From: an uncultured Gaiellales bacterium
GTDB lineage: Bacteria; Actinomycetota; Thermoleophilia; RBG-16-64-13
Assembly (NCBI GenBank): GCA_964423425.1
Contig: CAYRES010000004.1
Span: 8,736-72,735, forward strand
Length of the DNA: 64,000 nt
Reading direction: 5' to 3'
The position numbers were made by a program, and so were the translations under genes. Position 1 is the stretch's first letter, and the number at the start of each line of letters is the position of its first letter. Shown here in pieces: positions 20,602-37,290 of the stretch. Below the pieces are notes generated by a model that worked only from the letters and a program-made list of their open reading frames with translations, ran no database searches and was not told the DNA's origin.

Positions 20602-21507
20602 GTGTACAGAGTCTTGCAGCCTTTTGAGTACCTCGAAGCAAAGAGCGTCGACCACGCCGTGGAGCTTCTCACCCGCCTGGGTCCTGACGCCCGGGTCATC
20701 GCCGGAGGCACGGATCTCATCATCTCCATGAAGAAACGTGACCTGGCTCCGAAAGCCCTTATCGCCATTGGAGGGCTCAGCGAATTGAGCTTTCTCGAAG
20801 CCACGACCGAAGGTGGGCTTCGCATCGGGCCTCTGGTGACGCATGCGGCGGTCGCCGCTTCAGAGGTCGTCCGGGAACGTTTCGAGATGCTGGCGGTGGC
20901 AGCGGGGGAAGTGGGTACGCCACAGGTGAGGAACATGGGCACCCTAGGCGGCAACGTGTGCAAGGCCGGCCCCTCGCAGGACACTCCCCCGGTACTCATC
21001 GCCCTCGAGGCCGTGCTCACACTGCGGGGCCCCCACGGGGAGAGAAGCGTGCCGATGGGAGAATTCTGCACCGGTCCCTTCTGCACCGTTGTTGCTCCCG
21101 AAGAAGTTCTCACCGAGATCACCATCCCTCCGCTGCCGGAAGGCAGCGCCGGTTGTTACAAGTGGTGCACCAAGATCACGAAGGTGGATGAGACGCTGGC
21201 CGGGGCCGGTGTCGTGCTGTCACTGGCTGATGACGGTACCTGCAAGGACGTGCGCATCGGACTGGGCTCGGTTGCGCCCACGGCGATCCGGGCGCGGCAG
21301 GCCGAAGGGATGCTTCTCGGTACGAAGCTCGAACCGGGTGAGGTGGAGGCGGCGGCTGAGACGGCCTTCACCGAGTGCATGCCTCGCTCCCGGCCCGGTT
21401 ATCGCCGCCACATGGTGAGGGTGATGGTGAAGGACGCGGTCATGGAGCTCAAGGAGAAGATCGTGGGAGACAGTACGTCGAGTGACCCGGGGGAGGCGCC
21501 CCGATGA
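20602..21507 (+). CDS. Xanthine-dehydrogenase-family FAD-binding (medium, CoxM-like) subunit
   Basis: FEYLEAKSVDHAVELL......ARVIAGGTDLI is the molybdopterin-dehydrogenase FAD-binding N-terminus. 301 aa. Confidence 0.9.
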   Translation: MYRVLQPFEYLEAKSVDHAVELLTRLGPDARVIAGGTDLIISMKKRDLAPKALIAIGGLSELSFLEATTEGGLRIGPLVTHAAVAASEVVRERFEMLAVAAGEVGTPQVRNMGTLGGNVCKAGPSQDTPPVLIALEAVLTLRGPHGERSVPMGEFCTGPFCTVVAPEEVLTEITIPPLPEGSAGCYKWCTKITKVDETLAGAGVVLSLADDGTCKDVRIGLGSVAPTAIRARQAEGMLLGTKLEPGEVEAAAETAFTECMPRSRPGYRRHMVRVMVKDAVMELKEKIVGDSTSSDPGEAPR

Positions 21508-21986
21508 AGACTCTGGCCAACTTCGTGGTGAACGGCGAACCGTATGAACTTGCCATCGAGCCGAATCTTCTTCTCATAGAGGTGCTCCGGGACGAACTCG
21601 GGCTGACGGGTACGAAGCACAGCTGTGGAGTCGGCAACTGCGGTGCCTGTACCGTTCTCGTCGAGGGGGAACCGGTGCTTGCCTGTCTCAGTCTGGCCAT
21701 GGCTGCGCGAGGAAAGGCCATCACCACCATCGAGGGCTTGGCCGAAGGCCCCACCCTACATCCGCTCCAAGAGGCCTTCATCGAGGTGGGGGCCATTCAG
21801 TGCGGCTATTGCACGCCGGGCATGATCCTCACCGCGAAGGCTCTGCTTGACAAGAAACCCGACCCCACCGAGGAGGATGTCCGTGAAGCCTTGGCGGGCA
21901 ACATCTGCCGCTGTACCGGTTACGTGAAGATTATTGAGGCGGTACTCGCTGCTGCCGAGGCCATGCGGAAGGGGGCGGCCCGATGA
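21504..21986 (+). CDS. (2Fe-2S)-binding small subunit of molybdenum hydroxylase (CoxS-like)
   Basis: Plant-type plus second 2Fe-2S motifs: CGVGNCGACTV....C and CGYCTPGM....CRCTGY. Confidence 0.92.
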   Translation: MKTLANFVVNGEPYELAIEPNLLLIEVLRDELGLTGTKHSCGVGNCGACTVLVEGEPVLACLSLAMAARGKAITTIEGLAEGPTLHPLQEAFIEVGAIQCGYCTPGMILTAKALLDKKPDPTEEDVREALAGNICRCTGYVKIIEAVLAAAEAMRKGAAR

Positions 21987-24286
21987 ACGAGGAGTTCAGC
22001 GTTGTAGGTAAGAGGATTCGCCAGCCCGATGGTCCGGCCAAGGCCACCGGGGAAGCCAAGTTCGTGGGTGACCTTCGCATGCCGGGCATGCTCATCGCCA
22101 AAGTGCTCCGCAGTCCCCACGCCCATGCCCGGGTGGCGGCCATAGACACGAGTAGGGCTGAGGCGCTTCCCGGTGTGGCTGCGGTACTCACGCCGGATGA
22201 CCTCGAGGACTGGAGCGGCTTCGACCGGGGCATGAAGGACATGCCGCTGGTGGCCGGGGGGTACCGCATCCCACCTGAAGAACAGGTGGTCAACCGCGTC
22301 GCCCGCCACTATGGGGATGCCGTGGCGGCTGTCGCCGCCGTCAACGAACACATCGCCGAAGAGGCCCTCTCGCTGCTCGAGGTGGAGTACGAGGTGCTGC
22401 CCTTCGTGCTGAACGCTGAGGAAGCCCTGCGTTCCGGGGCGCCGCAGGTGACGGAAGCCGCTCCCGGCAACATCGGCAAGCACCTGTCGTATCCCTACCC
22501 CGAGGGCGACGTCGATCAGGCTCTCGCCGAAGCCGATCTGGTGGTGGAGGGCGAGTTCCAGACCACGAAGCAGGATCACTGCACCCAGGAGACGGCGGCC
22601 TGCCTTGCCTATGTGGATGCGTCCGGGCGTCTCAACGTATGGTCGCAATGCCAGCTGGCCCACCTGGCCCGGCGCGAACTGGCGAATATCTTCAACCTGC
22701 CGGTCCACAAGGTGAAGATCATGACGCCGTTCGTGGGAGGCAGTTTCGGCCAGCGCGGCGCCCTCTGTGCGGAGCCGGTGGCGGTCGCCTTGGCGCTCAA
22801 GACCAACAAGCCGGTCAAGCTGGTCTTCTCCCGGGAGGACAACTTCTTGGGGCTCGAGAGCCGCACCGGTTTCGACAACATCCACGTGCGTCTGGGGTTC
22901 AAGAAGGACGGCACCCTCACGGCAATCAAGACGAATATGCTTGGCCATCTGGGTGGGTACATGGGCTGTGGCCCCATGGCGTCGGTCATCGGCATGACGC
23001 TCTCCATGGGCCATTACCGCTGTCCCAACCGGTACGGCGACGCCGACATGGTGATGACGAACATCCCGGTGTCCGGCGCCATGAGGGGTTTCGGCAACGA
23101 TGCCATGATGTTCTGCATCGAGCAGTTGGTGGACGAAGCGGCCGAGAAGTTGGGCCTCGATCCCATCGATATCCGGCTGAAGAACACCAAACAGCCGGGC
23201 GAAACGGCCTCCATGGGGCTCATGCTGGAGAGCAGTTACCTGGAGGACTGCATGCGGGCCGGCGCTGAGAGGTTCGGCTGGCAGGAGCTGCGCTCACAGC
23301 CCAAGGAGACCGAGGGACGCATCAGGCGCGGTTGCGGCATGGCCACCATGAGCCACTGCACCGGCGCCGCACCTCTGTATCTGGAACACTCCAACGCCAT
23401 GGTGAAGTTCAACGAGGACGGCTCGGTCAACCTCACCGTGTATCCCGCTCCCGTGGGCACGCATATCTGGGGTGCTCTTTCCCAGATCTGCGCCGAGGAA
23501 CTCGGTATCGGGGTCGAAGACGTGAGCATCGTTACAGGCGACACCGACATCACCCTGTTCGAGTACGGTTCCGACGCAAGCCGCTCCACCTACGCCATCG
23601 GAGGCGCCACACTGAGGGCGGCGCGGAAGGCCAAGGAACAGTTGCTGGCTCATGCGGCGGAGATGCTCGAAGTTCCTCCGGACCAGCTGGAGACGCGGGA
23701 CAGACGAGTGTTCTCCAAGGCCGACCCCAACAAGAGTATCGACGTGGGTGAGGTGTGCTACGACGCCATCTACAGCTTCGGGGGAGAGGCCACGAACTTC
23801 GCGGGCAAGCAGTCGTTCGAGCCGACGTGGAACTCACCCACCTTCGGCGCTTACTTCGCCGAGGTCGAGGTCGATACCGAGACCGGCCGCGTGTGCGTGA
23901 CCCGTTTCGTGACCGCCATCGACTGCGGCAAAGCCATCAATCCCATGGCGGTGGAGGGCCAGCTCGAGGGAGGCCTTCAGCAGGGCCTGGGTTACGCCTT
24001 GACGGAGAACTTCCTGGTGAACGAGACCACGGGCAAGGTGGAGACCACGAACTACGACAGCTATAAGGTGCCGGGCACGCTCGACATGCCGCACAGTGAA
24101 GTCATCATCGTCGACAAACCCGACCCCAAGGGCCCGTTCGGAGCCAAGGGGGTGGGAGAGCCGGGTATGGTGGGGATTCCCCCTGCCATAGCCAACGCCA
24201 TATACGACGCGATTGGAGTGAGGATCCATAGTCTGCCCATGACCCCTGAACGGATCCTGGCGGCACTGGCTGAGAAGGACGACTGA
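21983..24286 (+). CDS. Xanthine-dehydrogenase/aldehyde-oxidoreductase-family molybdopterin-binding large subunit
   Basis: 767 aa. Has the generic XDH-family GAMRGFG motif, not the CODH AYRCSFR motif. Also KVKIMTPFVGGSFGQRG and a C-terminal GVGEPGMVGIPPAIANAIYDA block. Confidence 0.9.
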   Translation: MNEEFSVVGKRIRQPDGPAKATGEAKFVGDLRMPGMLIAKVLRSPHAHARVAAIDTSRAEALPGVAAVLTPDDLEDWSGFDRGMKDMPLVAGGYRIPPEEQVVNRVARHYGDAVAAVAAVNEHIAEEALSLLEVEYEVLPFVLNAEEALRSGAPQVTEAAPGNIGKHLSYPYPEGDVDQALAEADLVVEGEFQTTKQDHCTQETAACLAYVDASGRLNVWSQCQLAHLARRELANIFNLPVHKVKIMTPFVGGSFGQRGALCAEPVAVALALKTNKPVKLVFSREDNFLGLESRTGFDNIHVRLGFKKDGTLTAIKTNMLGHLGGYMGCGPMASVIGMTLSMGHYRCPNRYGDADMVMTNIPVSGAMRGFGNDAMMFCIEQLVDEAAEKLGLDPIDIRLKNTKQPGETASMGLMLESSYLEDCMRAGAERFGWQELRSQPKETEGRIRRGCGMATMSHCTGAAPLYLEHSNAMVKFNEDGSVNLTVYPAPVGTHIWGALSQICAEELGIGVEDVSIVTGDTDITLFEYGSDASRSTYAIGGATLRAARKAKEQLLAHAAEMLEVPPDQLETRDRRVFSKADPNKSIDVGEVCYDAIYSFGGEATNFAGKQSFEPTWNSPTFGAYFAEVEVDTETGRVCVTRFVTAIDCGKAINPMAVEGQLEGGLQQGLGYALTENFLVNETTGKVETTNYDSYKVPGTLDMPHSEVIIVDKPDPKGPFGAKGVGEPGMVGIPPAIANAIYDAIGVRIHSLPMTPERILAALAEKDD

Positions 24287-24381
24287 GGAGCCGGTGCCGG
24301 GCGATGCCGAGGGAAGGAGCAAGAGGCACTGCCATGGGGAACGCGGACGGGTCACCGCCACCCGGGTCTGCCGGCCGGACC

Positions 24382-25584
24382 ATGGCGTACTTGGATAACG
24401 CGTGCCTGGGTAGGCTTGGCCCGGAGTCGGCGGCGTGGGCTCGGGATGTCGTGGGCCGTCTCGAACGACCCGCCGGCCCGCCCACGGAGCTGGTCGTGGA
24501 GCTCTATCAGACGTACCCGCGTGCCCGTGCGTTGGCTGCCGCACTCGTGGGGGTCGACGAACAGCGTATCGCTCTCGTGGAGAGCACGTCACACGGGCTG
24601 GGTATGGTGGCCGCGGCTCTCCCTCTTTCGTCAGGCGACAATGTCTTGGTATGCGACCTGGAGTTCTTCCCCTCGGCCCTCTGCTGGCGGGCCCGAGCAG
24701 AAGCAATTGACCTGGAGGTGCGGCCGGTCCGGACTGCCGGTGGACGTGTCGGCGCGGTGGATTTCGAGCGCCATCTCGACGAACGGACCAAGGCCATTGT
24801 GGTGAGTGCCGTACAGGAGATCAACGGCTTCCGGGCACCCCTCGCCGATCTCTGCCGGATGGCCCACGCGGCCGGCGTCATGGTGATCGTGGACGGCGTG
24901 CAGGAAGTCGGCTGTCTGAACATCGACCTCGGCGGCGCGTACGACGAGTGCCCCGATGTGTACTGTGCGGGTGGGCACAAGTGGCTATGCAACCCGTTCG
25001 GCGTAGGCTTCATGTGTGTGCATGCCCGTGCACTCGACCTGCTCAAGCCGGCCTTCTACGGCTACTTCAACGCGGCCGAGCCCGATGATGGCTGGGGCTC
25101 GTATCTGGCCTCGCCGGAGCGCACACCGTTCGACCCCCTGCCCCTTCTTCCCGGGGCGCAACGCTTCGAGAGCGGGGGAATGGGCAACTTCTTGGGAGCG
25201 GCGGTGCTCGGCGCCAATCTGGAAGCGCTTCTTGCCAGGGGCATGGACAGGGTGGAGGCAGAGGTGAAGTCCCTCGGAGAACGCCTGGTCGAGGGTATCG
25301 AGGGCTTGGGTCTCGAAGTGCGCTGCTCTCTGGTCGGGGCTGAACGTTCCGGCATCACCGTGTTCGGCTTGCCCGGAGGCTTTCAGGCCGAGCTGGAGCT
25401 GAACGACTACCTGGCTTCCCACGGGGTGTATGTGTCGGTGCGCTATACGTCGGGAGTGGGTGGCGTTCGTGTTTCCCCCCACGTGCACAACGATTCTGTT
25501 GATGTCGACAGGCTGCTGGAAGCGACGGAGACGTGGCTCGGTTTCGCGAAATACTCGAGGCAGGAGTCTCGCGAAGGTTTATGA
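24382..25584 (+). CDS. Class V aminotransferase-fold PLP enzyme (NifS/cysteine-desulfurase-like)
   Basis: PLP-lysine motif GGHKWLCNPFGVGFM and fold-type-I class V N-terminal region. The start could be as early as 24304. It follows the Mo-subunit gene directly. Confidence 0.75.
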   Translation: MAYLDNACLGRLGPESAAWARDVVGRLERPAGPPTELVVELYQTYPRARALAAALVGVDEQRIALVESTSHGLGMVAAALPLSSGDNVLVCDLEFFPSALCWRARAEAIDLEVRPVRTAGGRVGAVDFERHLDERTKAIVVSAVQEINGFRAPLADLCRMAHAAGVMVIVDGVQEVGCLNIDLGGAYDECPDVYCAGGHKWLCNPFGVGFMCVHARALDLLKPAFYGYFNAAEPDDGWGSYLASPERTPFDPLPLLPGAQRFESGGMGNFLGAAVLGANLEALLARGMDRVEAEVKSLGERLVEGIEGLGLEVRCSLVGAERSGITVFGLPGGFQAELELNDYLASHGVYVSVRYTSGVGGVRVSPHVHNDSVDVDRLLEATETWLGFAKYSRQESREGL

Positions 25585-25979: not shown

Positions 25980-27212
25980 GTGAGAATTCGTTCAACAGTT
26001 CTTGTGGTCATTCTTATGTTGATTGCGGCGCTCTCGGTTGTTGTCGCCGGCTGCGGCGGAACCGAAGAGACAACTACTACCACTGCTGCCGGAGGCGACG
26101 AGACCACAACCACCGCGCCTTCCACAGGCGAAGTCATCGAGGTCAAGATCGCTGCTCAAGGTCCGTTCAGCGGGCAGCTTTCCAAGATCGGTCTCGACGC
26201 TCTTCAGGCCGTTGAGTTGGCGGTAGAAGAATTCAACGAGTCGCAGGACCAGATCAGGGTCACGGTTGAGGTGGGCGACGACGTGGCCGACCCGGCGAAA
26301 TCAGCGTTGTTGGCTGAGAAGTTCGTCTCCGACGCGTTGGTGATGGGTGTCATCGGCCCCATGAACAGCTCCGCCGGCCAATCGGCGCTCCCGGTGTTGG
26401 AGCCCGCCGGCCTGGCGCTGATCACCCAGTCGATGACGGCCGTCGAGCTCTCTCAGCAGGGCTACGCCGTGTTTCACCGGATCTGCCCGCGTGACGACGC
26501 CCAGGGTGCCGGCATCGCCGGGATCATGGCCGTCGATGTGGGGGCCGAGAAGGTCTACATGATCGACGACAAGAGCACCTACGGCCAGGGCCTGGCCGAC
26601 GAGGTGGAAGGCCTGCTGCGCGACAAGTACGGCATCACCGAGATCCAGCGTGACCAGATCGGGCCCGACGACAAGGAGTTCTCGACGCTGATCACCAAGA
26701 TCCGGGCCTTCGATCCGGATGTGTTCTTAGCCTGCATCCCCAGCCCGGCCCAGTATGCCGCCATCGCCAAGCAGATGCAGGCGGTGGGTTACCAGGTGCA
26801 GCTGGTCGGAGCCGATGCTGCAAACGACAAGGGTGAGTTCGTCGATGCCGCTGGCGATGCCACCGAGGGCACCCTCTTTACGTCGCTGGGGCCCATCGTG
26901 ACGGCCTCCACCAACCCGGCCACCGTGGCTTTCGTGGAGAAGTACCTCGATCGTTTCGGTGAGCTTTCAATGTTCTCCGCGCAGAGCTATGAAGCGGCCA
27001 ACGTGCTGCTCGACGCCATTGTGCGCGCCTACGAGGCCAATGGCGAAGTGACCCGTGAAGGTGTGCTCGAAGCGCTGAAGGCCACCAGCTACGACGGCGT
27101 TCTCGGCTTCACCATCGAGTTCACCGATCAGGGCGACCTTGCCTCCTCCGGTGTGTTCATCGGGCAAGTCAAGGACGGCGACTTCGTCTTGGTCAAAGAG
27201 GCGAACTTCTAG
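25980..27212 (+). CDS. ABC transporter substrate-binding lipoprotein, branched-chain/hydrophobic amino-acid (LivJ/LivK) family
   Basis: Lipoprotein signal peptide (LIAALSVVVAGCGG), a Thr/Glu-rich linker, then a type-I periplasmic binding fold (IKIAAQGPFSG...VMGVIGPMNSSAG). Confidence 0.85.
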   Translation: MRIRSTVLVVILMLIAALSVVVAGCGGTEETTTTTAAGGDETTTTAPSTGEVIEVKIAAQGPFSGQLSKIGLDALQAVELAVEEFNESQDQIRVTVEVGDDVADPAKSALLAEKFVSDALVMGVIGPMNSSAGQSALPVLEPAGLALITQSMTAVELSQQGYAVFHRICPRDDAQGAGIAGIMAVDVGAEKVYMIDDKSTYGQGLADEVEGLLRDKYGITEIQRDQIGPDDKEFSTLITKIRAFDPDVFLACIPSPAQYAAIAKQMQAVGYQVQLVGADAANDKGEFVDAAGDATEGTLFTSLGPIVTASTNPATVAFVEKYLDRFGELSMFSAQSYEAANVLLDAIVRAYEANGEVTREGVLEALKATSYDGVLGFTIEFTDQGDLASSGVFIGQVKDGDFVLVKEANF

Positions 27213-27303: not shown

Positions 27304-28230
27304 ATGGGACAACTCATAACGCAGCAAGTGATCAATGGGCTGGCCCTGGGTTGCGTGTACGGTCTCGTGACCCTGGGCTATTCCATGGTATATGGCATCT
27401 TGGAGATGCTGAACTTCGCTCACGGTGAAGTGTTCATGATCGGGGGCATGATCGGGTTCTATATCCTGCAGGTCTTCCTCGGCCCGGCCGGCCTCAACGC
27501 TCCCGCAGCCTTGGTGCTTCTGCTGATGATGATCGGAGCCATGGCCGGCTGTTCGCTCTTGGGTATGGGCATTGAGTTCATCGCCTACCGCCCCCTGCGC
27601 AAAGGGGGCGCCTCTCGACTGGCCGTGCTCATCACCGCCTTGGCCATGTCCATACTCCTACAGAATCTCACCGCTCTCTTCCTGGGCACGCGGGCCAAGG
27701 ACTACAGCACCTATCTGCTCATTCCCTCCGATTGGATCATCCGTCTGGGTACCATCACCATTACCGGCACCCAGGTCTTGATTATCTCCGTGACGATCAT
27801 TTCCATGTTGGCAGTCGACCTTTTCGTGCGCCGCACCCGCTTCGGCAAGGCCATGCGGGCCACCAACAATGACCGCGACGCCGCTCCCTTCATGGGCATC
27901 AGCGTGAATTTCATCGTCACCCTCACCTTCTTGGTGGGCTCGGCTCTTGCGGGTATAGGTGGAGTCCTCGTGGGTCTGTACTGGACTCAGGTGGACTTTT
28001 TCATGGGTTTTGCCGCCGGATTCAAGGCCTTCACGGCCGCAGTGCTCGGTGGTATCGGCAATCTGCGCGGGGCCATGCTGGGCGGGCTGCTTCTGGGTCT
28101 GGCCGAGAGCTTGGCCATCGCGTTTATCTCACCCACCTACAAGGATGCCATCGCCTTGGTCATTCTGGTGTTGGTGCTCTTGGTGAGGCCACAGGGTCTC
28201 TTGGGCGAGCAACTCCCGGTGAAAGTGTAG
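27304..28230 (+). CDS. Branched-chain amino-acid ABC transporter permease (LivH-like)
   Basis: 308-aa polytopic membrane protein. LivH-type N-terminus MGQLITQQVINGLALGCVYGLVTLGYSMVYGIL. Confidence 0.88.
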   Translation: MGQLITQQVINGLALGCVYGLVTLGYSMVYGILEMLNFAHGEVFMIGGMIGFYILQVFLGPAGLNAPAALVLLLMMIGAMAGCSLLGMGIEFIAYRPLRKGGASRLAVLITALAMSILLQNLTALFLGTRAKDYSTYLLIPSDWIIRLGTITITGTQVLIISVTIISMLAVDLFVRRTRFGKAMRATNNDRDAAPFMGISVNFIVTLTFLVGSALAGIGGVLVGLYWTQVDFFMGFAAGFKAFTAAVLGGIGNLRGAMLGGLLLGLAESLAIAFISPTYKDAIALVILVLVLLVRPQGLLGEQLPVKV

Positions 28231-28237
28231 GTGTGAC

Positions 28238-31039
28238 ATGACTGAGAACAGCACACCTCGCCTCGATCCCTCCGGCTTGGGGGAAACCACCGAGGAGTTC
28301 ATGGACAAGAAGACGTGGGGCCAACGTCTCTTGGAGACCACTCCCGCCCAAGGAGTGGCGACGGCTGCCGGCAAGGTGCCCCAGTGGGTATGGGCCCTCA
28401 TATTCGCCGGGCTGGTGTTGGGCTATCCCCTTATGGTGGGCAACGCCTACTGGGTCCGCATCGGCGGCACGGTGGCTCTCTACGTCATCTTGGGTGTGGG
28501 GTTGAATATTGTAGCCGGTTACAGCGGTATGCTGGACATGGGATACACAGCCTTCTACGGCATGGGTGCCTACACCTATGCCATCCTGGCCTCACCCCAC
28601 TTCGACATCCACCTCAACTTCTGGCTGATCCTGCCCATCTCCATGGCTGCCGCCATCGGCTTGGGAGTACTGATCGGTTCGCCTACCTTGCGGGTGCGGG
28701 GAGACTATTTGGCCATCGTCACCCTGTCACTGGGCAACATCTTCCAGATTCTGCTCAAGAATCTCGACCGTCCCGTCAACATCACCAATGGTCCCAACGG
28801 CATTGTCCGGGTGGATCCCCCTACCCTTTTCGGTTTCACCTTCACCACGGCCACCCAGTACTTCTACCTGGTGCTGTTCTTTGCCGTGGTGGTGGTGGTG
28901 GCCATCTCGCGCCTGCGATTCTCTCGCACCGGCCGTGCCTGGGCCGGCATCCGTGACGACGAGATCACCGCCTCCTGCATGGGTGTCTGGCGCCCCTACT
29001 ACAAAGTGCTTGCTTACATCTCCGGGGCGGCGTTGGCCGGTCTGGCCGGAGGCGTGTTCGCCAGTTGGCAGAAGGGTGTGTTCCCGGAGAACTTCGGTAT
29101 GGCCGAACTCATCGCCATCTACTGCATGGTGGTGATCGGTGGCGCCGGCAGTCCCAAAGGCGTCATTCTGGGTTCCATATCTCTGGTGTTCCTCGGTGAG
29201 GTGCTCCGACCCTACGGTGTCTACCGCATGGTCATCTATGCCCTCATCCTGCTGCTCATGATGCGGTTCCGTCCCGCGGGCATTCTGAAAGAGAAGCCGC
29301 GCAAGAGCAAGAGTACAGTGGAAGAGGCCCTCGCCCAAGGAGGTCTGGCCGTCGCCACGGCCACGACGGGCGGCGGCGGGTCAGGCAGACCATCGCAGAT
29401 GGTCCAGGCCACCGCTGTGTCGGAGAGGAAGAGAAGCATCAAGGAGTCGGCGGGCAAAGAGGCCTCGTCTGCTTCTGCGCCGGCCCCGCCTGCCGCAGCG
29501 AAGGACGGTGAGGTGCTGCTCAAGATCGAGGATCTCTCCAAGGCCTTCGGCGGTGTGGTGGCCGTCGCCGACGTCTCCTTCGACGTGAAGCAGGGCGAGA
29601 TCCTGGGTGTCATCGGTCCCAATGGAGCGGGCAAGACCACCGTGTTCAATCTCATCACCGGTATCTACAAGCCCGACGCCGGCAAGGTGACCTTCCAGGG
29701 GCAGGACATCACCGGTCTGCGTTCAGACAAGGTGGCCAGGGTGGGCTTGGGCCGCACCTTCCAGAACATCCGTACCTTCAACCTGCTGTCCGTGCTGGAC
29801 AACGTGATGGCCGGTGCCCATCCGCAGCTGAAGGGCGGGGTGTGGGCCGGCATCGTCAGGCCTCCGGGCATACGCCGGGCGGAGAAGCAGGCCGAGCTGC
29901 GTGCCATTCGTAACCTGGCCTTTTTCAACCGGCCATTGGCCGAGAGAAAAGACGAGTTTGTGACCTCACTCAACTACGCCGACCGCCGTCGGGTGGAGAT
30001 CTCCCGGGCCATGATGCTGGCGCCGAAGATCCTGCTGCTGGACGAGCCGGCCGCCGGCATGAACCCAACCGAAGTGGAGGAAATCACCGCCCAGATACAG
30101 CATCTGCGCGATGAGGGCTTCACCATCATCTTGGTGGAGCACCAGATGCCGGTGGTCATGGGTGTGTCTGACCGCATCGTGGTTATGAACAAGGGCGAGG
30201 TTCTCACCGAAGGTACACCGGCAGAGATACAGGCCAACGAAGAGGTCATCAAAGCCTACTTGGGAGTCCAGCACGAGGTGTGTGCAGATACCGGTCCCAA
30301 GCGGGAGTCGTTGGTCAAGGGTGAACCTCTGTTGTCCTTGAAGGGTGTGGGTGCCAGCTACGGAGCCGTGCGGGTGCTCTCCGGGGTGGATTTGGACGTG
30401 TACCGAGGTGAGATTGTCTGCCTCTTGGGGGCAAATGCCGCCGGCAAGAGCACCACGATAAAGACCATCTTGGGCAACGTGCGGGCCAATGCAGGCACCA
30501 TCACCTTCCAGGATGAGCCCATCCAGAAGGCCTCCACGGTCAACATCATCAAGAACGGCATCGGTGTGGTGCCGGAAGGCCGGCGCATCTTCTGGCGGCT
30601 TAGCGTGGAGGAGAACTTGGAGATGGGAGCCTTCAGCTCCTCGCGAGACGCAGCCAAGATCAAGCGCGGCAAGGAACGGGCCTTCGAGCAGTTCCCCATC
30701 CTTTATGAGCGCCGCAACCAGAAGGGCGGCACGCTCTCCGGCGGTGAGCAGCAGATGCTGGCCATCGCCCGGGCGCTCATGAACGAGCCCACACTCCTGC
30801 TGCTGGACGAGCCCTCCATGGGTCTGTCCCCCGTCCTGGTGCAGCAGATCATGGACATCGTGGTGCAGATCAACGAGGAGTGGGGCACCACTATCTTCAT
30901 GGTTGAGCAGAACGCCAACGAAGCTCTCAAGATTGCCGATCGGGGCTACGTGCTCCAGAACGGCCGCATCGTGATCACCGACTTGGCCTGCAACCTCTTG
31001 GCCGACGACGCCATGAAGGAAGCGTACCTGGGTGGTTGA
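28238..31039 (+). CDS. Triple-fusion LivM-LivG-LivF: permease domain plus two ABC ATPase domains in one 933-aa polypeptide
   Basis: Residues ~1–345 are a LivM-like permease. After a Gly/Ser/Ala-rich linker comes a LivG-like ATPase (Walker A GPNGAGKTT, signature LNYADRRRVEISRA, Walker B LLLDEPAAGMN). After a second linker comes a LivF-like ATPase (GANAAGKSTT, LSGGEQQMLAIARAL, LLLDEPSMGLSP). The frame is uninterrupted from 28238 to 31039. Confidence 0.85.
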   Translation: MTENSTPRLDPSGLGETTEEFMDKKTWGQRLLETTPAQGVATAAGKVPQWVWALIFAGLVLGYPLMVGNAYWVRIGGTVALYVILGVGLNIVAGYSGMLDMGYTAFYGMGAYTYAILASPHFDIHLNFWLILPISMAAAIGLGVLIGSPTLRVRGDYLAIVTLSLGNIFQILLKNLDRPVNITNGPNGIVRVDPPTLFGFTFTTATQYFYLVLFFAVVVVVAISRLRFSRTGRAWAGIRDDEITASCMGVWRPYYKVLAYISGAALAGLAGGVFASWQKGVFPENFGMAELIAIYCMVVIGGAGSPKGVILGSISLVFLGEVLRPYGVYRMVIYALILLLMMRFRPAGILKEKPRKSKSTVEEALAQGGLAVATATTGGGGSGRPSQMVQATAVSERKRSIKESAGKEASSASAPAPPAAAKDGEVLLKIEDLSKAFGGVVAVADVSFDVKQGEILGVIGPNGAGKTTVFNLITGIYKPDAGKVTFQGQDITGLRSDKVARVGLGRTFQNIRTFNLLSVLDNVMAGAHPQLKGGVWAGIVRPPGIRRAEKQAELRAIRNLAFFNRPLAERKDEFVTSLNYADRRRVEISRAMMLAPKILLLDEPAAGMNPTEVEEITAQIQHLRDEGFTIILVEHQMPVVMGVSDRIVVMNKGEVLTEGTPAEIQANEEVIKAYLGVQHEVCADTGPKRESLVKGEPLLSLKGVGASYGAVRVLSGVDLDVYRGEIVCLLGANAAGKSTTIKTILGNVRANAGTITFQDEPIQKASTVNIIKNGIGVVPEGRRIFWRLSVEENLEMGAFSSSRDAAKIKRGKERAFEQFPILYERRNQKGGTLSGGEQQMLAIARALMNEPTLLLLDEPSMGLSPVLVQQIMDIVVQINEEWGTTIFMVEQNANEALKIADRGYVLQNGRIVITDLACNLLADDAMKEAYLGG

Positions 31040-31235: not shown

Positions 31236-31311
31236 TGCACCTCGATGCCGGTCGCGAGCGGAGCGCGCGGGAATCGCGCGCCGCGATGATCCAAGACAAG
31301 AGGAGACCGCC

Positions 31312-32691
31312 GTGGCGGACTATCCCTTTGAGCCATTTCGCATCAAGGTCGTTGAACCCATCCGGCCGAACACCGCGGAAGAGCGCACGCGTATCTTGCG
31401 GGAGGCCGGCTACAATCTGTTCGCGGTGCGGGCGGAAGACATACTCATCGACCTGTTCACGGATTCCGGCACCACCGCCATGAGTGACGGCCAATGGGCG
31501 GGAATGATGCAGGGGGATGAGGCCTACGCGGGCTGTCGTAACTACTATCATCTCGAGGAGGTGCAACGCAGCATCTTCGGTATGCCCTACTTTGTCCCCA
31601 CTCATCAGGGGAGGCCGGCCGAGACCATGCTCATGGATCTCACCATCAGTGAGGGCGATGTGATTCCCAACAACATGCACTTCGACTCCACCGAAGCGAA
31701 TGTCGTGGTACGTGGTGGCAAAGCGATGAACCTGGCCATCGACGAGGCCTGGGATCCCCAAGCTCACCATCCCTTCAAGGGGAACATGGATATCGCGAAA
31801 CTCCGCCGGTGTATCGAGGAGACAGGAGTGGAGAGCATACCCTTCGTCATGATCACGGTCACGAACAACACCGGGGCGGGCCAGCCGGTGTCGATGGAGA
31901 ACATTCGAGCCGTCAAGGAGGTGGCGGAGGAATTCGGGCTTCCCCTCTGGTTTGATGCCGCCCGCTACGCGGAGAATGCCTACTTCGTCAAGGTACGGGA
32001 GCCTGGCTACGAGCACAAGAGTCCGGTTGAGATCGCCCAGGAGATGTTCGCGCTTGCCGATGGGTTTGTGATGAGCTGCAAGAAGGACGGCCTGGTGAAC
32101 ATCGGAGGTCTGTTCGGTACGAGAGACGCAGAACTGTTCGAGCGGGCCAAGGTTCTCATGATCCTGAGAGAAGGCTTTCTCACCTACGGAGGACTTGCCG
32201 GGCGAGACTTGGAGGCATTGGCGCGGGGCCTCATGGAAGGCGTGGACGAGAGCTACCTCGCCTACCGCATCGAACAGACGAAGTATCTGGGCGACCGGCT
32301 GAGCGAGGCGGGAGTGCCTATCTTCGAGCCGGTGGGCGGCCATGCCGTCTATCTCGATATGAAGCGCTTTCTGCCCCACATACCCCAGAACCTGTTCCCC
32401 GGCGTGGCGTTCACGGCTAGGCTTTACGTTGAGGCCGGCGTGCGCGCAGTCGAACTCGGTTCGCTCGCCTTCGCCCACCCCGACCCGACGACCGGCGAGA
32501 TGAGGTATCCCGCGCTGGAACTGGTGCGGTTGGCTCTGCCGCGGCGCGTCTACACGCAGAAGCACGTGGACTATGTCGCCGACGCCATCGTGAAGATCTA
32601 CGAGGAGAGAGAGAAGCTGGAGGGGCTGGAGCTCCTGTGGGAGGCTCCGTTGATGAGGCACTTCACCGCGAAGCTGGCGCCGGTCTCGTAG
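31312..32691 (+). CDS. Beta-eliminating lyase: tryptophanase / tyrosine phenol-lyase family
   Basis: 459 aa. Near-canonical TnaA/TPL N-terminus YPFEPFRIKVVEP..R...EER.RIL.EAGYN.F...ED...IDL.TDSGT.AMSD.QWA.MM.GDEAYAG. PLP-Lys region SCKKDGLVNIGG. C-terminus RHFTAKL. GTG start with AAGAGGAG RBS. The C-terminal FTARLYVEAGVRAVELGS block resembles tryptophanase slightly more than tyrosine phenol-lyase. Confidence 0.9.
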   Translation: MADYPFEPFRIKVVEPIRPNTAEERTRILREAGYNLFAVRAEDILIDLFTDSGTTAMSDGQWAGMMQGDEAYAGCRNYYHLEEVQRSIFGMPYFVPTHQGRPAETMLMDLTISEGDVIPNNMHFDSTEANVVVRGGKAMNLAIDEAWDPQAHHPFKGNMDIAKLRRCIEETGVESIPFVMITVTNNTGAGQPVSMENIRAVKEVAEEFGLPLWFDAARYAENAYFVKVREPGYEHKSPVEIAQEMFALADGFVMSCKKDGLVNIGGLFGTRDAELFERAKVLMILREGFLTYGGLAGRDLEALARGLMEGVDESYLAYRIEQTKYLGDRLSEAGVPIFEPVGGHAVYLDMKRFLPHIPQNLFPGVAFTARLYVEAGVRAVELGSLAFAHPDPTTGEMRYPALELVRLALPRRVYTQKHVDYVADAIVKIYEEREKLEGLELLWEAPLMRHFTAKLAPVS

Positions 32692-32705
32692 GGAGCGGGG
32701 TTCTC

Positions 32706-33959
32706 GTGTTCAACCACAGAGTTCGTACACGTACGCGAAGACTGGGACGGGGCGACGGGGAAGGGAGGCGCTGGCCTCCCTTCCCCGTCGCCGCCGATCG
32801 CTTCGATCAGAAGAACGAGATGTTCAAGCGCGGTCTGTGGGATCCAGAGGCGGTCACCCTGACCGACCGTTTCCAGGAACTTGTCTACCAGGAACGGCCG
32901 GGGTATGACAAGTTGGCCTACTCACTGCAGTCGGCCGCGTGGAACACCGAGGATGCCTTTGGATACGAAGAAGCGACAGGCAGTCCGCTTGCCCTTTACT
33001 CCTGGACACCCCAGGAAGGTCGGCCGCGGCAGTGCGCCGTGACCGGCCGCCCCGTGCGGGAAGATCCGGAAAGAATGAGCCGGGTGGTGAAGAAGGCCGC
33101 CCGTTTGTACGGGGCCGACTTGGTGGGCATCACTCGTGTTCATGAGAGCTGGGTATATTCACACAGCTACAACAAGTTCTCCAGAAGGCATGAACCGCTC
33201 GAACTCCCCGAGGGCTGCACCACGGCCGTGGTCATGGCGTGGGCCATGGATTTTGATGCGATACGCACGTCACCCACCGCCGTGGCCGGTGCCGGGACCG
33301 GAGTGGGGTACAGCAGAATGGCTTTCTCGGCCAACCTGCTGGCGACATTCATCCGCGCACTCGGGTACACGGCTGTACCGTGCGGCAACGACACTGCTCT
33401 TAGCATACCGCTCGCCATGGCGGCCGGGCTTGGGGAGACAAGCCGCATGGGTCTTCTCATCACCGAGAAGTACGGCCCGCGGGTGCGGCTGGCCAAGGTG
33501 TTCACCGACCTCCCTCTCCTCTCCGACTCGTACAGGCCCTTTGGGGTGACCGAGTTCTGCCGTGTGTGCATGACCTGTGCCCGGCACTGCCCATCGCAGG
33601 CGATCAGCGAGGGAGAGATGACCACCGAAGGGCCCAACCTGTCGAGCCACCATGGTCCCTTGAAGTGGTATGTGGACGGATTCAAGTGTTACTCGTATTG
33701 GGCGCGTAATCGCATGGACTGCTCCGTGTGTATTCGCGTGTGCCCCTTCAACAAGAAGGAGGGCCGGCTCCACGATGCGGTGAGGGCCGCCATCAGGTAC
33801 GCTCCGGCGTTCAATCCCCTCATTGTGCGGGGAGACCAGGCTCTTGGTTATGAGAAGGCTCTGCGGGTGCGCGAGTTCTTCGAGGACTCCCCCGTTACCC
33901 GGTCGAACGGTGCCACCATGGTGCCGGCAAAGAACCAGATTACCTCTCACCCGCGATGA
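32706..33959 (+). CDS. Reductive-dehalogenase-family (RdhA/QueG superfamily) corrinoid/2x[4Fe-4S] protein without signal peptide
   Basis: Two C-terminal cluster motifs with RdhA-like spacing: CRVCMTCARHCP (Cx2Cx2Cx3CP) and CYSYWARNRMDCSVCIRVCPFNKK. Upstream RdhA-type blocks RFDQKNEMFKRGLWDPE and AARLYGADLVGITRVHE. ~130 residues precede the GADLVGI block, which is too long for epoxyqueuosine reductase (QueG). No hydrophobic Tat/Sec signal. The ORF (from 32637) overlaps the tnaA-like 3' end; the first usable start after the tnaA stop is GTG at 32706. Confidence 0.65.
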   Translation: MFNHRVRTRTRRLGRGDGEGRRWPPFPVAADRFDQKNEMFKRGLWDPEAVTLTDRFQELVYQERPGYDKLAYSLQSAAWNTEDAFGYEEATGSPLALYSWTPQEGRPRQCAVTGRPVREDPERMSRVVKKAARLYGADLVGITRVHESWVYSHSYNKFSRRHEPLELPEGCTTAVVMAWAMDFDAIRTSPTAVAGAGTGVGYSRMAFSANLLATFIRALGYTAVPCGNDTALSIPLAMAAGLGETSRMGLLITEKYGPRVRLAKVFTDLPLLSDSYRPFGVTEFCRVCMTCARHCPSQAISEGEMTTEGPNLSSHHGPLKWYVDGFKCYSYWARNRMDCSVCIRVCPFNKKEGRLHDAVRAAIRYAPAFNPLIVRGDQALGYEKALRVREFFEDSPVTRSNGATMVPAKNQITSHPR

Positions 33960-34029
33960 GCGAATGATCCGAGGAAGCCGCACAGAGGGCCGAAGGTCGG
34001 TTTCACCGTCGGACGGCGGAGGCTTGGGT

Positions 34030-35223
34030 ATGAGCCTGGTGCTCATGCTGAGCTTCTTTGCGGTCGCCGTCATGCAAATGGCCGTTCCGGTGACGGCGTC
34101 TCTTCTGCGCGACGTGAACGGTCTCACCGCAGGCCAGGTAGGTCTGCTCATGTCGGCGTACCTTCTCTCGTACGGCCCGGGGCAGATGCTCTCGGGTTGG
34201 TTGCCTGTGAGAGTGGGGGGTAGGGTGGTCGTCTGGGGCCTGCTCATTGTCGCGGCGGCGGCCGTACCGTTCATCCTGGGTTGGCCGTTCGGGGCTCTGC
34301 TCGGTGCGCGCTTCCTGCAGGGTATCGGCGCGGGTGCGACCTTCCCGGCGGCCGGCTATCTCATGAACGTATACCTACCCCCCGAAAAGCTCAGCCGGGG
34401 CTGGTCATCGTATGCTGCCGGAGCGGCCATGGGCAACCTGTTCGCCCTCTTGGGTCTGGCCCGTGTGGGGCAACTGGGGGGTCTTGCGGGTGCATTCCTC
34501 GTGGGTGGCGGAGTCGTCCTTCTCTCCGCCGCGGCGGCCTGGGCGCAGCCGGCGGTAAGGGCCCGTCCGAATGACTCTCCGCACGAGGAGCTCCCCCTGG
34601 GCATGTGGGCTGCGGTGCGCTTCCTGTTCGCCAAGCCCGAAGTCAGGCTTCTCGCGGTGGTCAACATCAGCGTGGTCACCCTCTCGGTGGTCACACTGAC
34701 GTGGACGGCTGAGTTCTTGCGCGAGTATCATGGAGCTTCGGTGGCGCTGGCCACCGCTATCACTGCGGGCTATGCGGCGGCCCAGCTCATTGGAGCCCCC
34801 ACCTCTGCTCTGCTGCTGAGGCGTCTGGGGCGGCTGACGTTGCTTCTTGTCATGCTGATCGGGATGGTGCTGGCAGGAACAGCTCTTGCTCTCTCGCGCA
34901 GTTCGGTGGGCGCCTTCGTGAGTGTCTTTCTCATGGGCTTCTTCATGCTGGGGTCGTTCACGCCCAGCTTCGCGCTCATCCCGGAGTACGTACCGGCCCG
35001 GCTGGCCGGGATGGCCAGCGGGGTGTTGAACGGCATTGCCTTCGTGGGAGCCCTGGCGGGCCCCTGGGTGTTCGGGCTCATATTGGACGTGGGGTGGGGT
35101 TACCGGGTCGGATACGGAGCGTTCACGCTGTTGTCGGGGAGCGGTGTTCTGGCCGTCCTCAGTCTCGTCCGGAGGGCCCGGCATGGCACCATACCGGCGC
35201 TCCAAGAGCAGGGAACGGTCTAG
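34030..35223 (+). CDS. MFS transporter
   Basis: 12-TM pattern with MFS-typical loops (GLLMSAYLLSYGPGQMLSGWL, RFLQGIGAGATFPA). Confidence 0.85.
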   Translation: MSLVLMLSFFAVAVMQMAVPVTASLLRDVNGLTAGQVGLLMSAYLLSYGPGQMLSGWLPVRVGGRVVVWGLLIVAAAAVPFILGWPFGALLGARFLQGIGAGATFPAAGYLMNVYLPPEKLSRGWSSYAAGAAMGNLFALLGLARVGQLGGLAGAFLVGGGVVLLSAAAAWAQPAVRARPNDSPHEELPLGMWAAVRFLFAKPEVRLLAVVNISVVTLSVVTLTWTAEFLREYHGASVALATAITAGYAAAQLIGAPTSALLLRRLGRLTLLLVMLIGMVLAGTALALSRSSVGAFVSVFLMGFFMLGSFTPSFALIPEYVPARLAGMASGVLNGIAFVGALAGPWVFGLILDVGWGYRVGYGAFTLLSGSGVLAVLSLVRRARHGTIPALQEQGTV

Positions 35224-35241: not shown

Positions 35242-36252
35242 TTGACCAGTTTTGGAATACGATTCATTGACCACTTGGCTCCGGCGTCCACCATTCTGGA
35301 CTGGGTGGAGTTCGCCGACGACAAGGGCTTCGAGTACGTCTGGTTTCCACACGACACCTTCTGTAAGAGTACGTGGGCGATGACCTGCGCAGCGGCACAG
35401 CGCACCCGCCGCATGAAGATCGGTTCGATCGGTACGAATCCCTACACCTTCGATCCATGCGAGATCGCTACCTATGCGGCCACGTTGGACGAACTCTCAG
35501 AAGGGCGGGCGGTCCTCGGTCTCGGGCTGCACACGAGCGACATGTTGGCTTGGGTGGGCATAGAGGCAACCGATGTGATAGGCGCCACCAGTGAGGCGGT
35601 GGAGTTGATTCGCGGTCTCCTGAGGGGCGAGGTGATGGAGTACCGCGGCAAGCAGTTCCAGTGGACCGACCAGGCATACCTGCGCTTCAAGCCCTTTCGC
35701 GAGAGGATACCGATATATGGGTGTGCCTTCGGTGCGGACTACCTGGCGATGACGGGAGAGGTGTGCGAAGGCAGCCTGCCCATGATCACCCCTCCGGAGT
35801 CGGCTCCCCGCATGGTGGCGCACATACAGCGGGGTATCGAGCGCGCGGGCCGGCGGCCCCAGGAAGTTGACATCGCCGGCTGTGCCTGGCTTTCGCTCTC
35901 CGACGATGGTGCCACGGCCGATGCTGTCATGCGCAAGATGGTCTCGTACTTCGGGGCCTACCTGGAGGAGGAGGCGCTCCGCACGGTGGGCTTGAGCGTC
36001 TCTTCTTTTGATGAGATCAAGTCCCTCATCGACTCGGGTCGCTACCACGATGCGGCCGAGGCGGTGACGCCTGAGATGCTGCGGTTGGGCATCTCCGGCA
36101 CCCCGCACCAGGTGATCGAGCGAATCGAGGAGTTGGAGGAGGCCGGTATCACCCAGGTTTGCCTGGGAGGGCCCCTCGGACCCGATCCCCGAAAGGCCAT
36201 AGAGCTTCTCGGAGCCAAGGTGCTGCCGCACTTCGCCGCCCGCACGGGCTGA
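35242..36252 (+). CDS. Luciferase-like monooxygenase (LLM) class flavin/F420-dependent oxidoreductase
   Basis: TIM-barrel LLM motifs (GFEYVWFPHD, RMKIGSIGTNPYTFDP, GRAVLGLGLH); resembles the methylene-H4MPT-reductase-like subgroup. TTG start with GAGGAGGGG RBS. Confidence 0.8.
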   Translation: MTSFGIRFIDHLAPASTILDWVEFADDKGFEYVWFPHDTFCKSTWAMTCAAAQRTRRMKIGSIGTNPYTFDPCEIATYAATLDELSEGRAVLGLGLHTSDMLAWVGIEATDVIGATSEAVELIRGLLRGEVMEYRGKQFQWTDQAYLRFKPFRERIPIYGCAFGADYLAMTGEVCEGSLPMITPPESAPRMVAHIQRGIERAGRRPQEVDIAGCAWLSLSDDGATADAVMRKMVSYFGAYLEEEALRTVGLSVSSFDEIKSLIDSGRYHDAAEAVTPEMLRLGISGTPHQVIERIEELEEAGITQVCLGGPLGPDPRKAIELLGAKVLPHFAARTG

Positions 36253-36258: not shown

Positions 36259-37290
36259 ATGGACCATTCACCTCCTGGAGCCCGTACGGCGGGCGCCGTC
36301 GCGGTCACCCTGCTTTTCTGGGGGTCTGCGTTCGCTGCCATCAAGGCAGGTTTGGACTCGTTTGGACCCGGCCAGGTTGCGTTGGGGCGCTTTCTGGTGG
36401 CTTCCGCCGCCCTCGGTTTCTACGCCTTTTCCGGACGGGTGCGTGTTCCCGCCTTGCGCGATGTGCCTGCGCTCGTCCTGATCGGGTTCCTCGGGGTGAC
36501 TGTCTACCATGTGGGCATCAGCTTCGGCCAGGTATCGGTATCTGCCGGAGCCACGAGCATCATCGTGTCGACAAACCCCATCTTCACGGCGCTCTTGGCC
36601 ACGTTCTTCCTGAAGGAGAGGCTACGGGTGTGGGGCTGGGTGGGAGTGGGCTTGAGCTTCTTCGGCTCGACGCTCGTGGCTTTCGGGGAGGGTGGAGGCA
36701 CGGGATTCAACCCGTATGCACTCTTCATCGTGATGGCTGCCGTGGCCACGGCCATCTCTTTCGTCATCCAGAAGCCCTACCTGCGTAGGTACAGGGCCAT
36801 CGAGATGACCACCTACACCATCTGGGTGGGCACCGCCTTCATGCTGGTGTTCCTCCCGGGCTTGGTGCGGCAGGTGCCGCAGGCCTCAATGGAATCACTT
36901 CTCGCGCTGGTGTACCTGGGCCTCTTCCCGGCCGCGCTTGCGTACATCACCTGGACGTATGCTCTCGCCCGTACGCCGGCGTCGGTGTTGACCACATATC
37001 TTTACGTGATTCCCCTGCTCGGCATCTTCTTCGCCTGGTTGTGGCGGGGAGAGGTACCGGTGCTGTTGTCGATTGGAGGCGGGGTACTGGCGCTTGCCGG
37101 AGTGGCTCTCGTGAACACCAAGGGCAGGGACAGGCCTGCCCTCGTACCCCCCGAGGCCGTGCCCGGGGCGGTGGTCAACGGGGCGGTGGACGACGGAGAG
37201 AACGGGAAGCCGTTCAATGAACGGGTCGACCGCAGAGGCGAGAGAGGAGACTTCGAAAGTCCTCGAGAGGACGAGCTCCGCTCACCTTGA
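36259..37290 (+). CDS. DMT superfamily (EamA-type) transporter
   Basis: Two EamA repeats (LLFWGSAFAAIKAG... and ALVYLGLFPAALAYITWTYALAR), ~10 TM segments, and a long charged C-terminal tail. Confidence 0.8.
   Translation: MDHSPPGARTAGAVAVTLLFWGSAFAAIKAGLDSFGPGQVALGRFLVASAALGFYAFSGRVRVPALRDVPALVLIGFLGVTVYHVGISFGQVSVSAGATSIIVSTNPIFTALLATFFLKERLRVWGWVGVGLSFFGSTLVAFGEGGGTGFNPYALFIVMAAVATAISFVIQKPYLRRYRAIEMTTYTIWVGTAFMLVFLPGLVRQVPQASMESLLALVYLGLFPAALAYITWTYALARTPASVLTTYLYVIPLLGIFFAWLWRGEVPVLLSIGGGVLALAGVALVNTKGRDRPALVPPEAVPGAVVNGAVDDGENGKPFNERVDRRGERGDFESPREDELRSP

Follow-up and report, generated by a model that had tools for sequence, protein, structure and literature searches.

A leaderless reductive dehalogenase homolog paired with a tryptophanase-type lyase in a tryptophan-type catabolic gene cluster of an uncultured Gaiellales bacterium

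We analysed a 64-kb stretch of DNA from an uncultured Gaiellales bacterium (assembly GCA_964423425.1, contig CAYRES010000004.1, positions 8,736 to 72,735; hereafter the window, G+C content 63%), in which a gene for a homolog of the reductive dehalogenases (RdhA) directly follows a gene for a beta-eliminating lyase. The RdhA open reading frame (ORF) lies on the + strand and ends at 33959, and its only in-frame start codons upstream of the conserved N-terminus are GTG 32637 and GTG 32706; the next candidate start, an ATG, would cut out the invariant FDQKNE block. The earlier start, picked by a gene caller, would produce a 55-nt overlap with the lyase gene. Because the 23 residues that it adds are encoded within the lyase gene and are without equivalent in the homologs, we take 32706–33959 as the gene and consider a start at 32637 unlikely from the sequence. 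From GTG 32706, the RdhA gene begins after a gap of 14 nt behind the lyase stop codon TAG (32689–32691), without overlap, and is preceded by a Shine–Dalgarno sequence, GGGAG, that overlaps this stop codon. A first-pass annotation of the same DNA had described overlapping genes; the tight coupling stands, while a literal overlap exists only with the start at 32637.

All sequence blocks on which that annotation had based an RdhA assignment are found in the ORF. Counted along the 417-aa product from GTG 32706, the block FDQKNEMFKRGLWDPE occupies residues 33–48 and GADLVGI residues 136–142, with 135 residues ahead of the latter (about 130 had been estimated). The first iron–sulfur motif, CRVCMTCARHCP, places C285, C288, C291 and C295 ahead of a proline (CxxCxxCxxxCP), and the second has the arrangement C328...C339-x2-C342-x3-C346-P (C...CSVCIRVCP).

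We determined the identity of the ORF from profile scores, homology to solved structures, catalytic residues and predicted fold. On the NCBIfam reductive dehalogenase model TIGR02486 it reaches 214.8 bits (cutoff 160.35); on the Pfam model PF13486 ('Dehalogenase') it reaches 17.1 bits and, like many members of its family, stays below the cutoff of 24.3. A phmmer search of the PDB returned two PceA proteins as best matches (8q4h, 1e-64; 4uqu, 1e-63), followed by NpRdhA (4e-26) and, far behind, the epoxyqueuosine reductase QueG (2e-6). In the phmmer alignment to 4uqu, the PceA residues Tyr246, Asn272 and Arg305 correspond to Tyr202, Asn228 and Arg261, and this catalytic triad and all eight iron–sulfur cysteines are invariant in alignments of 19 and 49 homologs. 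An AlphaFold2 model built on 49 sequences (pLDDT 81.9, pTM 0.84) was compared with solved structures by Foldseek and matches PceA with template modelling (TM) scores of 0.66–0.72 over 380–484 columns, the N-terminal part included, NpRdhA with 0.65 and QueG with 0.27–0.38. QueG shares the superfamily, the corrinoid and the two [4Fe-4S] clusters with the ORF, but the latter reaches only 40 bits on the QueG model TIGR00276 (cutoff 200), and together with the PDB and fold comparisons this leads us to reject a QueG identity. By sequence and predicted fold, the ORF is assigned a bona fide RdhA catalytic domain. The preference for RdhA over QueG in the first-pass annotation is thereby borne out, also by both of the checks it had named, profile placement relative to QueG and an RdhA fold in the N-terminal region.

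The protein does not carry the attributes of a respiratory RdhA, a Tat signal peptide and an adjacent rdhB gene. Neither a twin-arginine translocation (Tat) consensus nor a hydrophobic h-region is present in its first 70 residues or in those of 48 homologs, in agreement with the earlier statement that a Tat or Sec leader is missing, and no rdhB adjoins the gene, whose neighbours are the lyase and a transporter of the major facilitator superfamily (MFS) and include no small three-helix membrane protein. Without a Tat leader and an RdhB anchor, the enzyme is therefore expected to be cytoplasmic rather than to face the periplasm in a respiratory complex. Its closest solved relatives are nevertheless the respiratory PceA proteins of S. 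multivorans (4uqu) and of the Desulfitobacterium type (RDH complex 8q4h), to which it is about 30% identical over nearly the full length. It has the corrinoid-binding core and both [4Fe-4S] motifs in common with them, as well as equivalents of Tyr246, Asn272 and Arg305, and differs in the missing leader and membrane anchor and in its location in an amino-acid catabolic operon. The suggested kinship with the cytoplasmic 'catabolic' class of NpRdhA and BhbA (4ras, 6zxu) did not hold. That class is likewise cytoplasmic and presumably non-respiratory and has the same core fold, but PceA is much closer in sequence, and the ORF aligns only to residues 321–616 of the 704-residue NpRdhA chain 4ras. 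The fused reductase/ferredoxin-type module that makes those enzymes self-sufficient is missing, and no further domain was detected in the RdhA, so that a separate electron donor would be needed.

The partner gene encodes a tryptophanase-type lyase. It scores well above the cutoff of the tryptophanase subfamily model PRK13238 (673 versus 285 bits), stays below both equivalog cutoffs for the tryptophanase TnaA (NF053783, 584 versus 750 bits; TIGR02617, 500 versus 825.8 bits) and is also below that for tyrosine phenol-lyase (TIGR02618, 574.8 versus 720.7 bits). Alignment to the tyrosine phenol-lyase of C. freundii (2ez1) shows replacements at three specificity positions: Thr124 corresponds to Asp125 (motif HFDST), Arg381 to Leu382 (RAVELG) and Phe448 to His450 (MRHFTAKL), the Phe448-Phe449 pair having become His-Phe. 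The tryptophanase structure 8sbg has the same pattern at these positions, and the signature is common to all 120 of the closest lyase homologs, the closest named ones coming from metagenome-assembled genomes (MAGs) of Thermoleophilia, a group to which the window, judged by these homologs, probably belongs. Asp125, Val380, Leu382, His450 and Phe451 presumably correspond to Asp137, Val394, Ile396, His463 and Phe464 of E. coli TnaA, with residue numbers that agree with the published ones. On these sequence grounds the lyase is a divergent member of the tryptophanase type, with the specificity residues of TnaA at scores below the TnaA equivalogs, and a tyrosine phenol-lyase identity is rejected. 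Of the double label 'tryptophanase / tyrosine-phenol-lyase' given before, the first half is thus retained and the second dropped. The idea of a halotyrosine or halophenol route, raised along with that label, therefore loses support, and the idea of a halotryptophan or haloindole route gains it.

The pairing of lyase and RdhA is found in at least six distinct contigs, with RdhA proteins 62–81% identical to that of the window and overlaps of usually 1–4 nt. The closest locus (L001/L002; RdhA 81% identical to the query) has a gap of 20 nt and is syntenic over the whole cluster; the overlap with the lyase is 4 nt in L087/L088 (69%), 1 nt in the P0008 contig (64%) and 4 nt in L003 (62%). Two further loci were found via the lyase, namely L171, with a 4-nt overlap, and L172, in which the RdhA is fragmented by frameshifts. 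Neighbour-joining trees group the lyase-linked RdhAs into a single clade, and likewise the RdhA-linked lyases. Given a pairing kept in a monophyletic subclade, the two genes are almost certainly co-expressed, as had been claimed. Linkage across the whole RdhA family was rejected: a tblastn search of flanks of up to 10 kb found no lyase near the RdhA in any of the 79 GTDB loci (44–62% identical) or the 78 distant metagenome loci, and the P0003 contigs, which start at the RdhA gene, cover no upstream side. Relative to the rest of the family, the subclade carries Asp83 for Trp, Ala96 for Gly and Ser154 for Glu in the N-terminal region, replacements that may reflect a changed pocket.

Two of these loci have irregular gene structures. 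In L003 a single called ORF (5284–7122) starts as the N-terminal part of a molybdenum (Mo) hydroxylase large subunit (Ald_Xan_dh_C, MoCoBD_1) and continues as 205 C-terminal residues of a lyase, all that is left of it there, which are 78% identical to the lyase of the window and are directly followed by RdhA. This looks either like a deletion that took out half of the lyase together with the aminotransferase and ABC transporter genes or like a chimera of the assembly. In L172 the RdhA (11380–12503) is split into fragments of 151 and 111 aa behind a lyase 75% identical to that of the window. The molybdopterin oxidoreductase and LivMGF genes of this locus are split too, which suggests frameshift errors of assembly rather than a pseudogene.

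One locus places a dehalogenase-type gene of another kind behind an orthologous lyase. In L174 (GCA_975199785.1, contig CDHKQA010000320.1), a lyase 70% identical to that of the window is directly followed by an ORF of the deiodinase family (2481–3209), with 4 nt shared between its start and the stop of the lyase gene. It runs in a single frame broken by one TGA, at LVLIFGSYT-TGA-PPFRRR, which is exactly the selenocysteine position of FGSxT-U-PPF, the motif that marks the active site of iodothyronine deiodinases. When the TGA is translated as cysteine, the product matches PF00837 at 7.9e-36 (124 bits), and the match spans the TGA; the gene caller had split the gene into two ORFs. A hairpin resembling a selenocysteine insertion sequence (SECIS), spotted by eye behind the TGA (GUCGCC-GGGUC-GGCGAC), has a folding energy no better than that of shuffled sequences (z = -0.11), and our reading of the gene as probably encoding a bacterial selenoprotein therefore rests on the position of the motif and on homology across the TGA. 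Iodothyronine deiodinases are a reductive dehalogenase family with a fold and cofactor unrelated to those of RdhA (thioredoxin fold, selenocysteine), and no member is present in the window. A second, unrelated family of reductive dehalogenases behind the same kind of lyase would be expected if the substrate or product of the lyase is halogenated, and the gene thus offers an independent hint at a link between the lyase and dehalogenation. A nitroreductase-family gene in L173 was considered as an iodotyrosine deiodinase (IYD), a third type of dehalogenase, and rejected, with a generic nitroreductase and albonoursin synthase as its best PDB matches and IYD at 7e-4.

In the window, the pair is embedded in a cluster in which all genes from 16612 to 37290 run in the same direction on the + strand (Table 1). 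Indolepyruvate:ferredoxin oxidoreductase (IorAB) and Mo-hydroxylase genes are followed by a class-V pyridoxal 5'-phosphate (PLP) enzyme, a Liv-type ATP-binding cassette (ABC) transporter, the lyase and RdhA, and the MFS transporter gene annotated behind RdhA is indeed present. The true start of IorB is probably later than the one listed. The same order of FrhB-like, IorA, IorB, flavin adenine dinucleotide (FAD) subunit, FeS subunit and Mo subunit genes precedes RdhA in L003, where the FrhB-like gene again stands ahead of IorA, and L171 has the order Mo-hydroxylase, class-V enzyme, ABC transporter, lyase, RdhA. Homologs of the class-V enzyme occupy the same place in L171, L172 and L173. The Mo-hydroxylase large subunit has the Pfam domains Ald_Xan_dh_C and MoCoBD_1/2. 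An MFS homolog, 49% identical, occurs in the P0003 cluster (L083), and a Bac_luciferase gene also in L173, a cluster that has no RdhA.

Table 1 Features of the lyase–RdhA cluster, with positions in the window
Feature	Coordinates	Strand	Length and evidence
FrhB/FdhB-like protein (F420-dependent oxidoreductase beta-type)	16612..17871	+	PF04432, PF04422; first cluster gene
IorA-like indolepyruvate:ferredoxin oxidoreductase alpha	17828..19927	+	TIGR03336 511.6 bits, under equivalog cutoff 650.9
IorB-like indolepyruvate:ferredoxin oxidoreductase beta	19870..20601	+	TIGR03334 151.7 bits, residues 35-224
Mo-hydroxylase FAD subunit, xanthine-dehydrogenase family	20602..21507	+	XdhB-like, glyceraldehyde dehydrogenase beta ~200 bits, under equivalog cutoffs
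Mo-hydroxylase [2Fe-2S] subunit	21504..21986	+	PF01799 4.5e-34; PF00111
Mo-hydroxylase molybdopterin-binding large subunit	21983..24286	+	XdhA-like 622 bits, 4-hydroxybenzoyl-CoA reductase alpha 530 bits, both under cutoff
Class-V PLP enzyme (aminotransferase or desulfurase fold)	24304..25584	+	PF00266; SufS-type scores weak
Liv/HAAT-type periplasmic substrate-binding protein	25980..27212	+	PF13458, PF13433; PRK15404 123 bits
ABC permease (LivH-type)	27304..28230	+	PF02653
Fused LivM-type permease and two ABC ATPase domains	28238..31039	+	933 aa; PF02653 + PF00005 + PF12399 + PF00005
Tryptophanase-type beta-eliminating lyase	31312..32691	+	459 aa; PF01212 6.9e-74; PRK13238 673 bits; specificity residues
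GGGAG Shine–Dalgarno sequence of the RdhA gene	32691..32695	+	overlaps lyase stop codon; sequence reading
Leaderless RdhA homolog	32706..33959	+	417 aa; TIGR02486 214.8 bits, PceA matches, fold, invariant motifs
MFS transporter	34030..35223	+	397 aa as called; PF07690 4.4e-35
Luciferase-like (Mer-like, probably F420-dependent) oxidoreductase	35242..36252	+	PF00296 2.2e-54; TIGR03555 218 bits, under cutoff
EamA-family transporter	36259..37290	+	PF00892 3.2e-41; last co-directional gene

The best explanation of these data is twofold: the ORF would encode a functional cytoplasmic reductive dehalogenase with a corrinoid and two [4Fe-4S] clusters, as predicted from sequence and model, and lyase and RdhA would be made together, forming an accessory module within a gene cluster for tryptophan/indole catabolism. 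That this module serves the catabolism of halotryptophan or haloindole is our preferred reading of its role, to which we assign a little less than an even chance. Tryptophanases cleave 7-chloro- and 7-bromotryptophan, and the tryptophanase homolog AetE cleaves 5-bromotryptophan, to haloindoles (PMC9315010). AetE acts in the biosynthesis of aetokthonotoxin, where its partner is a halogenase, in contrast to the catabolic, dehalogenase-coupled context of the lyase described here.

We infer each step of the following route from gene identities and synteny. The Liv-type ABC transporter would import halogenated tryptophan, or halotryptophan derived from peptides, and the lyase would split the halotryptophan into haloindole, pyruvate and ammonia. 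RdhA could then remove the halogen from the haloindole reductively, yielding indole and halide, with electrons from ferredoxin reduced by the IorAB of the same cluster; the reverse order, in which halotryptophan is dehalogenated before it is cleaved, is also conceivable. The Mo-hydroxylase may subsequently attack and hydroxylate the indole ring, in line with the way in which N-heterocycles are degraded anaerobically. Export of indole or halide-free products may be the task of the MFS or EamA transporter.

Several observations weigh against a halotryptophan or haloindole role. Nothing in the sequence points out a halogenated ligand, the electron donor is proposed from gene proximity only, and the 64-kb window was found to contain neither a halogenase gene nor a gene for cobalamin synthesis or uptake or a cobalamin riboswitch. 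Sister lyases (69–72% identical) occur in similar clusters without RdhA: in L173, from a Thermoleophilia MAG, and in the P0143 contig the gene next to the lyase encodes a regulator of the GntR/FCD family, and in L175 the lyase has no counterpart of a dehalogenase behind it. The core function of the cluster can therefore do without dehalogenation, and RdhA is an accessory, gained by a lyase cluster that already existed and kept there since. The genes downstream of the pair vary as well, from MFS, luciferase-like and EamA genes in the window to genes for aldo-keto reductase (AKR), OCD/mu-crystallin and PALP proteins in other loci. The deiodinase-like neighbour was observed on a single contig, with no second case in 177 loci, in the window or beside P0147, the closest lyase available, and bacterial selenocysteine-containing deiodinase-like proteins are known while their function is not (PMC1088965).

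RdhA might instead serve as a general electron sink that reduces whatever organohalides are available and thereby re-oxidises the ferredoxin of amino-acid fermentation by indolepyruvate:ferredoxin oxidoreductase and related enzymes, its substrate being chemically unlinked to the substrate or product of the lyase and the two genes being neighbours through co-regulation only. We consider this unlikely: the Tat-less family (44–62% identical) does occur without the lyase in many anaerobic lineages, beside varied uptake and catabolic genes, and a ferredoxin-producing oxidoreductase is encoded in the same cluster, but overlaps of 1–4 nt kept across 62–81% RdhA identity and the matching clades fit a specific partnership better, and in L174 the gene behind the orthologous lyase is again of a dehalogenase type, though of another kind. 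The overlapping stop and start codons, which persist down to 62% RdhA identity while the downstream genes are reshuffled, together with the lack of flanking mobile-element genes among the gene calls of the window, also make it very improbable that the adjacency is without functional link, in the sense of an RdhA gene that landed there at random or on a mobile cassette and was then co-inherited, even though the clusters without RdhA in L173, the P0143 contig and L175 mark the gene as accessory.

The chemistry itself could also differ from the one proposed. A corrinoid scaffold of the RdhA/QueG type might reduce a metabolite derived from tryptophan or indole, much as QueG reduces an epoxide, and this would agree with a superfamily that already holds a non-dehalogenase in QueG, with the lack of halogen-related genes in the cluster as seen in the window and with the N-terminal replacements at positions 83, 96 and 154 that are specific to the subclade. 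Full conservation of the Tyr/Asn/Arg set of PceA, a similarity to true dehalogenases that far exceeds that to QueG (1e-64 versus 2e-6) and the halogen chemistry suggested by the deiodinase-like gene render it improbable. Dehalogenation of halotyrosine or halophenols, with a lyase of broad range acting on tyrosine analogues, is quite improbable given a lyase that lacks Thr124, Arg381 and Phe448 and has tryptophanase residues in their place, as do all of its 120 closest homologs, that stays below the tyrosine phenol-lyase equivalog cutoff and that has an indolepyruvate-type oxidoreductase as cluster partner. This is so despite characterised RdhAs such as PceA that bind halophenols (5m8u and 5ma1 are among the fold matches) and despite the animal deiodinases, of the family found in L174, whose targets are phenolic rings carrying iodine (PMC1088965).

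The Tat-less RdhA is in itself of a known kind, and what is new is the conserved module of tryptophanase and RdhA in a tryptophan-type catabolic cluster. Tat-less, rdhB-less rdhA homologs of unknown function have been reported from subseafloor metagenomes, among them cluster Smkt1 of Kawai et al. 2014 (PMC3939436), which is likewise TIGR02486-positive, has two iron–sulfur motifs and lacks both a Tat signal and an adjacent rdhB. In contrast to these orphan rdhAs, only the subclade of the query was found, among the loci compared here, with a translationally coupled tryptophanase-type gene upstream. Our literature search found no paper that gives leaderless rdhA homologs a substrate or role, and none that links reductive dehalogenases with tyrosine phenol-lyase, bromotyrosine, bromoindole or halotryptophan; tryptophanase came up in incidental mentions only.

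A dedicated bacterial pathway for halogenated tryptophan or indole, in which tryptophanase is translationally coupled to RdhA here and to a selenocysteine-containing deiodinase-like enzyme in a sister lineage, is possible but doubtful. If true, it would for the first time assign a class of physiological substrates to the large orphan family of cytoplasmic RdhAs without a Tat leader, thousands of which occur in anoxic sediments, soils and the subsurface, and would supply the first functional clue, a dehalogenating role, for bacterial deiodinase-like selenoproteins. Marine invertebrates, algae and bacteria make haloindoles and halotryptophans as natural products. The tryptophanase partner and the context of indole and aromatic amino-acid metabolism narrow the candidate substrates of RdhA to these two compound groups, so that the module offers, for an enzyme family that is still an orphan, a substrate hypothesis concrete enough to be tested. 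Confirmation would tie the natural cycle of organohalogens to amino-acid fermentation and add a ferredoxin-dependent cytoplasmic dehalogenase type for biocatalysis.

We further characterised the wider Tat-less family. A protein search returned 3219 significant matches among 8000 candidates scored, most of them proteins of about 383 aa that are 55–62% identical to the query. In GTDB, members were found in MAGs of Thermodesulfobacteriota, Thermoleophilia, Anaerolineae, Dehalococcoidia, Gemmatimonadota, Aminicenantes and other groups. Their source labels are inconsistent, reading either 'reductive dehalogenase' or 'epoxyqueuosine reductase', and the latter, a JGI label on some members, is contradicted by the profile, PDB and fold results. 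Clustering of the neighbour genes over 160 loci yielded as recurrent neighbours Liv-type ABC ATPases (28), binding proteins (19) and permeases (18), the DctM (17), DctP (12) and DctQ (9) components of tripartite ATP-independent periplasmic (TRAP) transporters, aldo-keto reductases (9) and urocanase, HisF-like proteins and molybdopterin oxidoreductases (7 each). The family thus adjoins uptake systems for charged organic solutes, which fits a cytoplasmic enzyme acting on imported substrates. Distant members stand beside urocanase (7 loci, directly adjacent in 5; for example L025:1304-3007), a HisF-like gene (7 loci; for example L098:1700-2464) or TRAP transporters (17 loci), and this distribution suggests that different RdhA subclades are tied to different imported substrates.

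The related clusters share further genes. Behind the lyase or RdhA, most relatives carry a block of an aldo-keto reductase, an OCD/mu-crystallin protein and one or two PALP proteins of the tryptophan-synthase-beta fold (L083:1415-5716; L171:18500-21380; in L173, without RdhA, 12211-15184). In three relatives that contain RdhA, the ABC transporter and lyase genes are separated by a gene for a molybdopterin oxidoreductase of the dimethyl sulfoxide reductase family (658–686 aa; L171:7853-9829; L172:7778-9824; P0008 contig 3289-5349), which is absent from the window and L001. The fusion of permease and two ATPase domains (899–933 aa) is kept in L001, L171 and the P0008 contig.

Upstream of the cluster, positions 5986–16263 of the window are dense in amino-acid catabolic genes, with two aminotransferases, a dehydrogenase of the Glu/Leu/Phe type, a second thiamine pyrophosphate-dependent 2-oxoacid oxidoreductase, an Asp/Glu racemase-family gene and a fumarylacetoacetate (FAA) hydrolase on the - strand and a GntG-type aldolase and a GntR/FCD regulator on the + strand; these genes and the cluster may share a regulon. 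Long ORFs run antisense to real genes, for example at 16303–17901, 31096–32661 and 33270–34274, all on the - strand, the first of them without a family match, and are typical of the spurious ORFs of G+C-rich DNA. At gathering threshold, Rfam models match the window once, at a tRNA gene (47921–47993, + strand), and the genes downstream of the cluster are housekeeping genes (RmuC, ArgS, Fpg, LysA, Hom, GlpX, Rho). A DsbA-like gene on the - strand (37214–37732) converges on the EamA gene with 3' ends overlapping by about 77 nt (37214–37290), an arrangement also present in L001.

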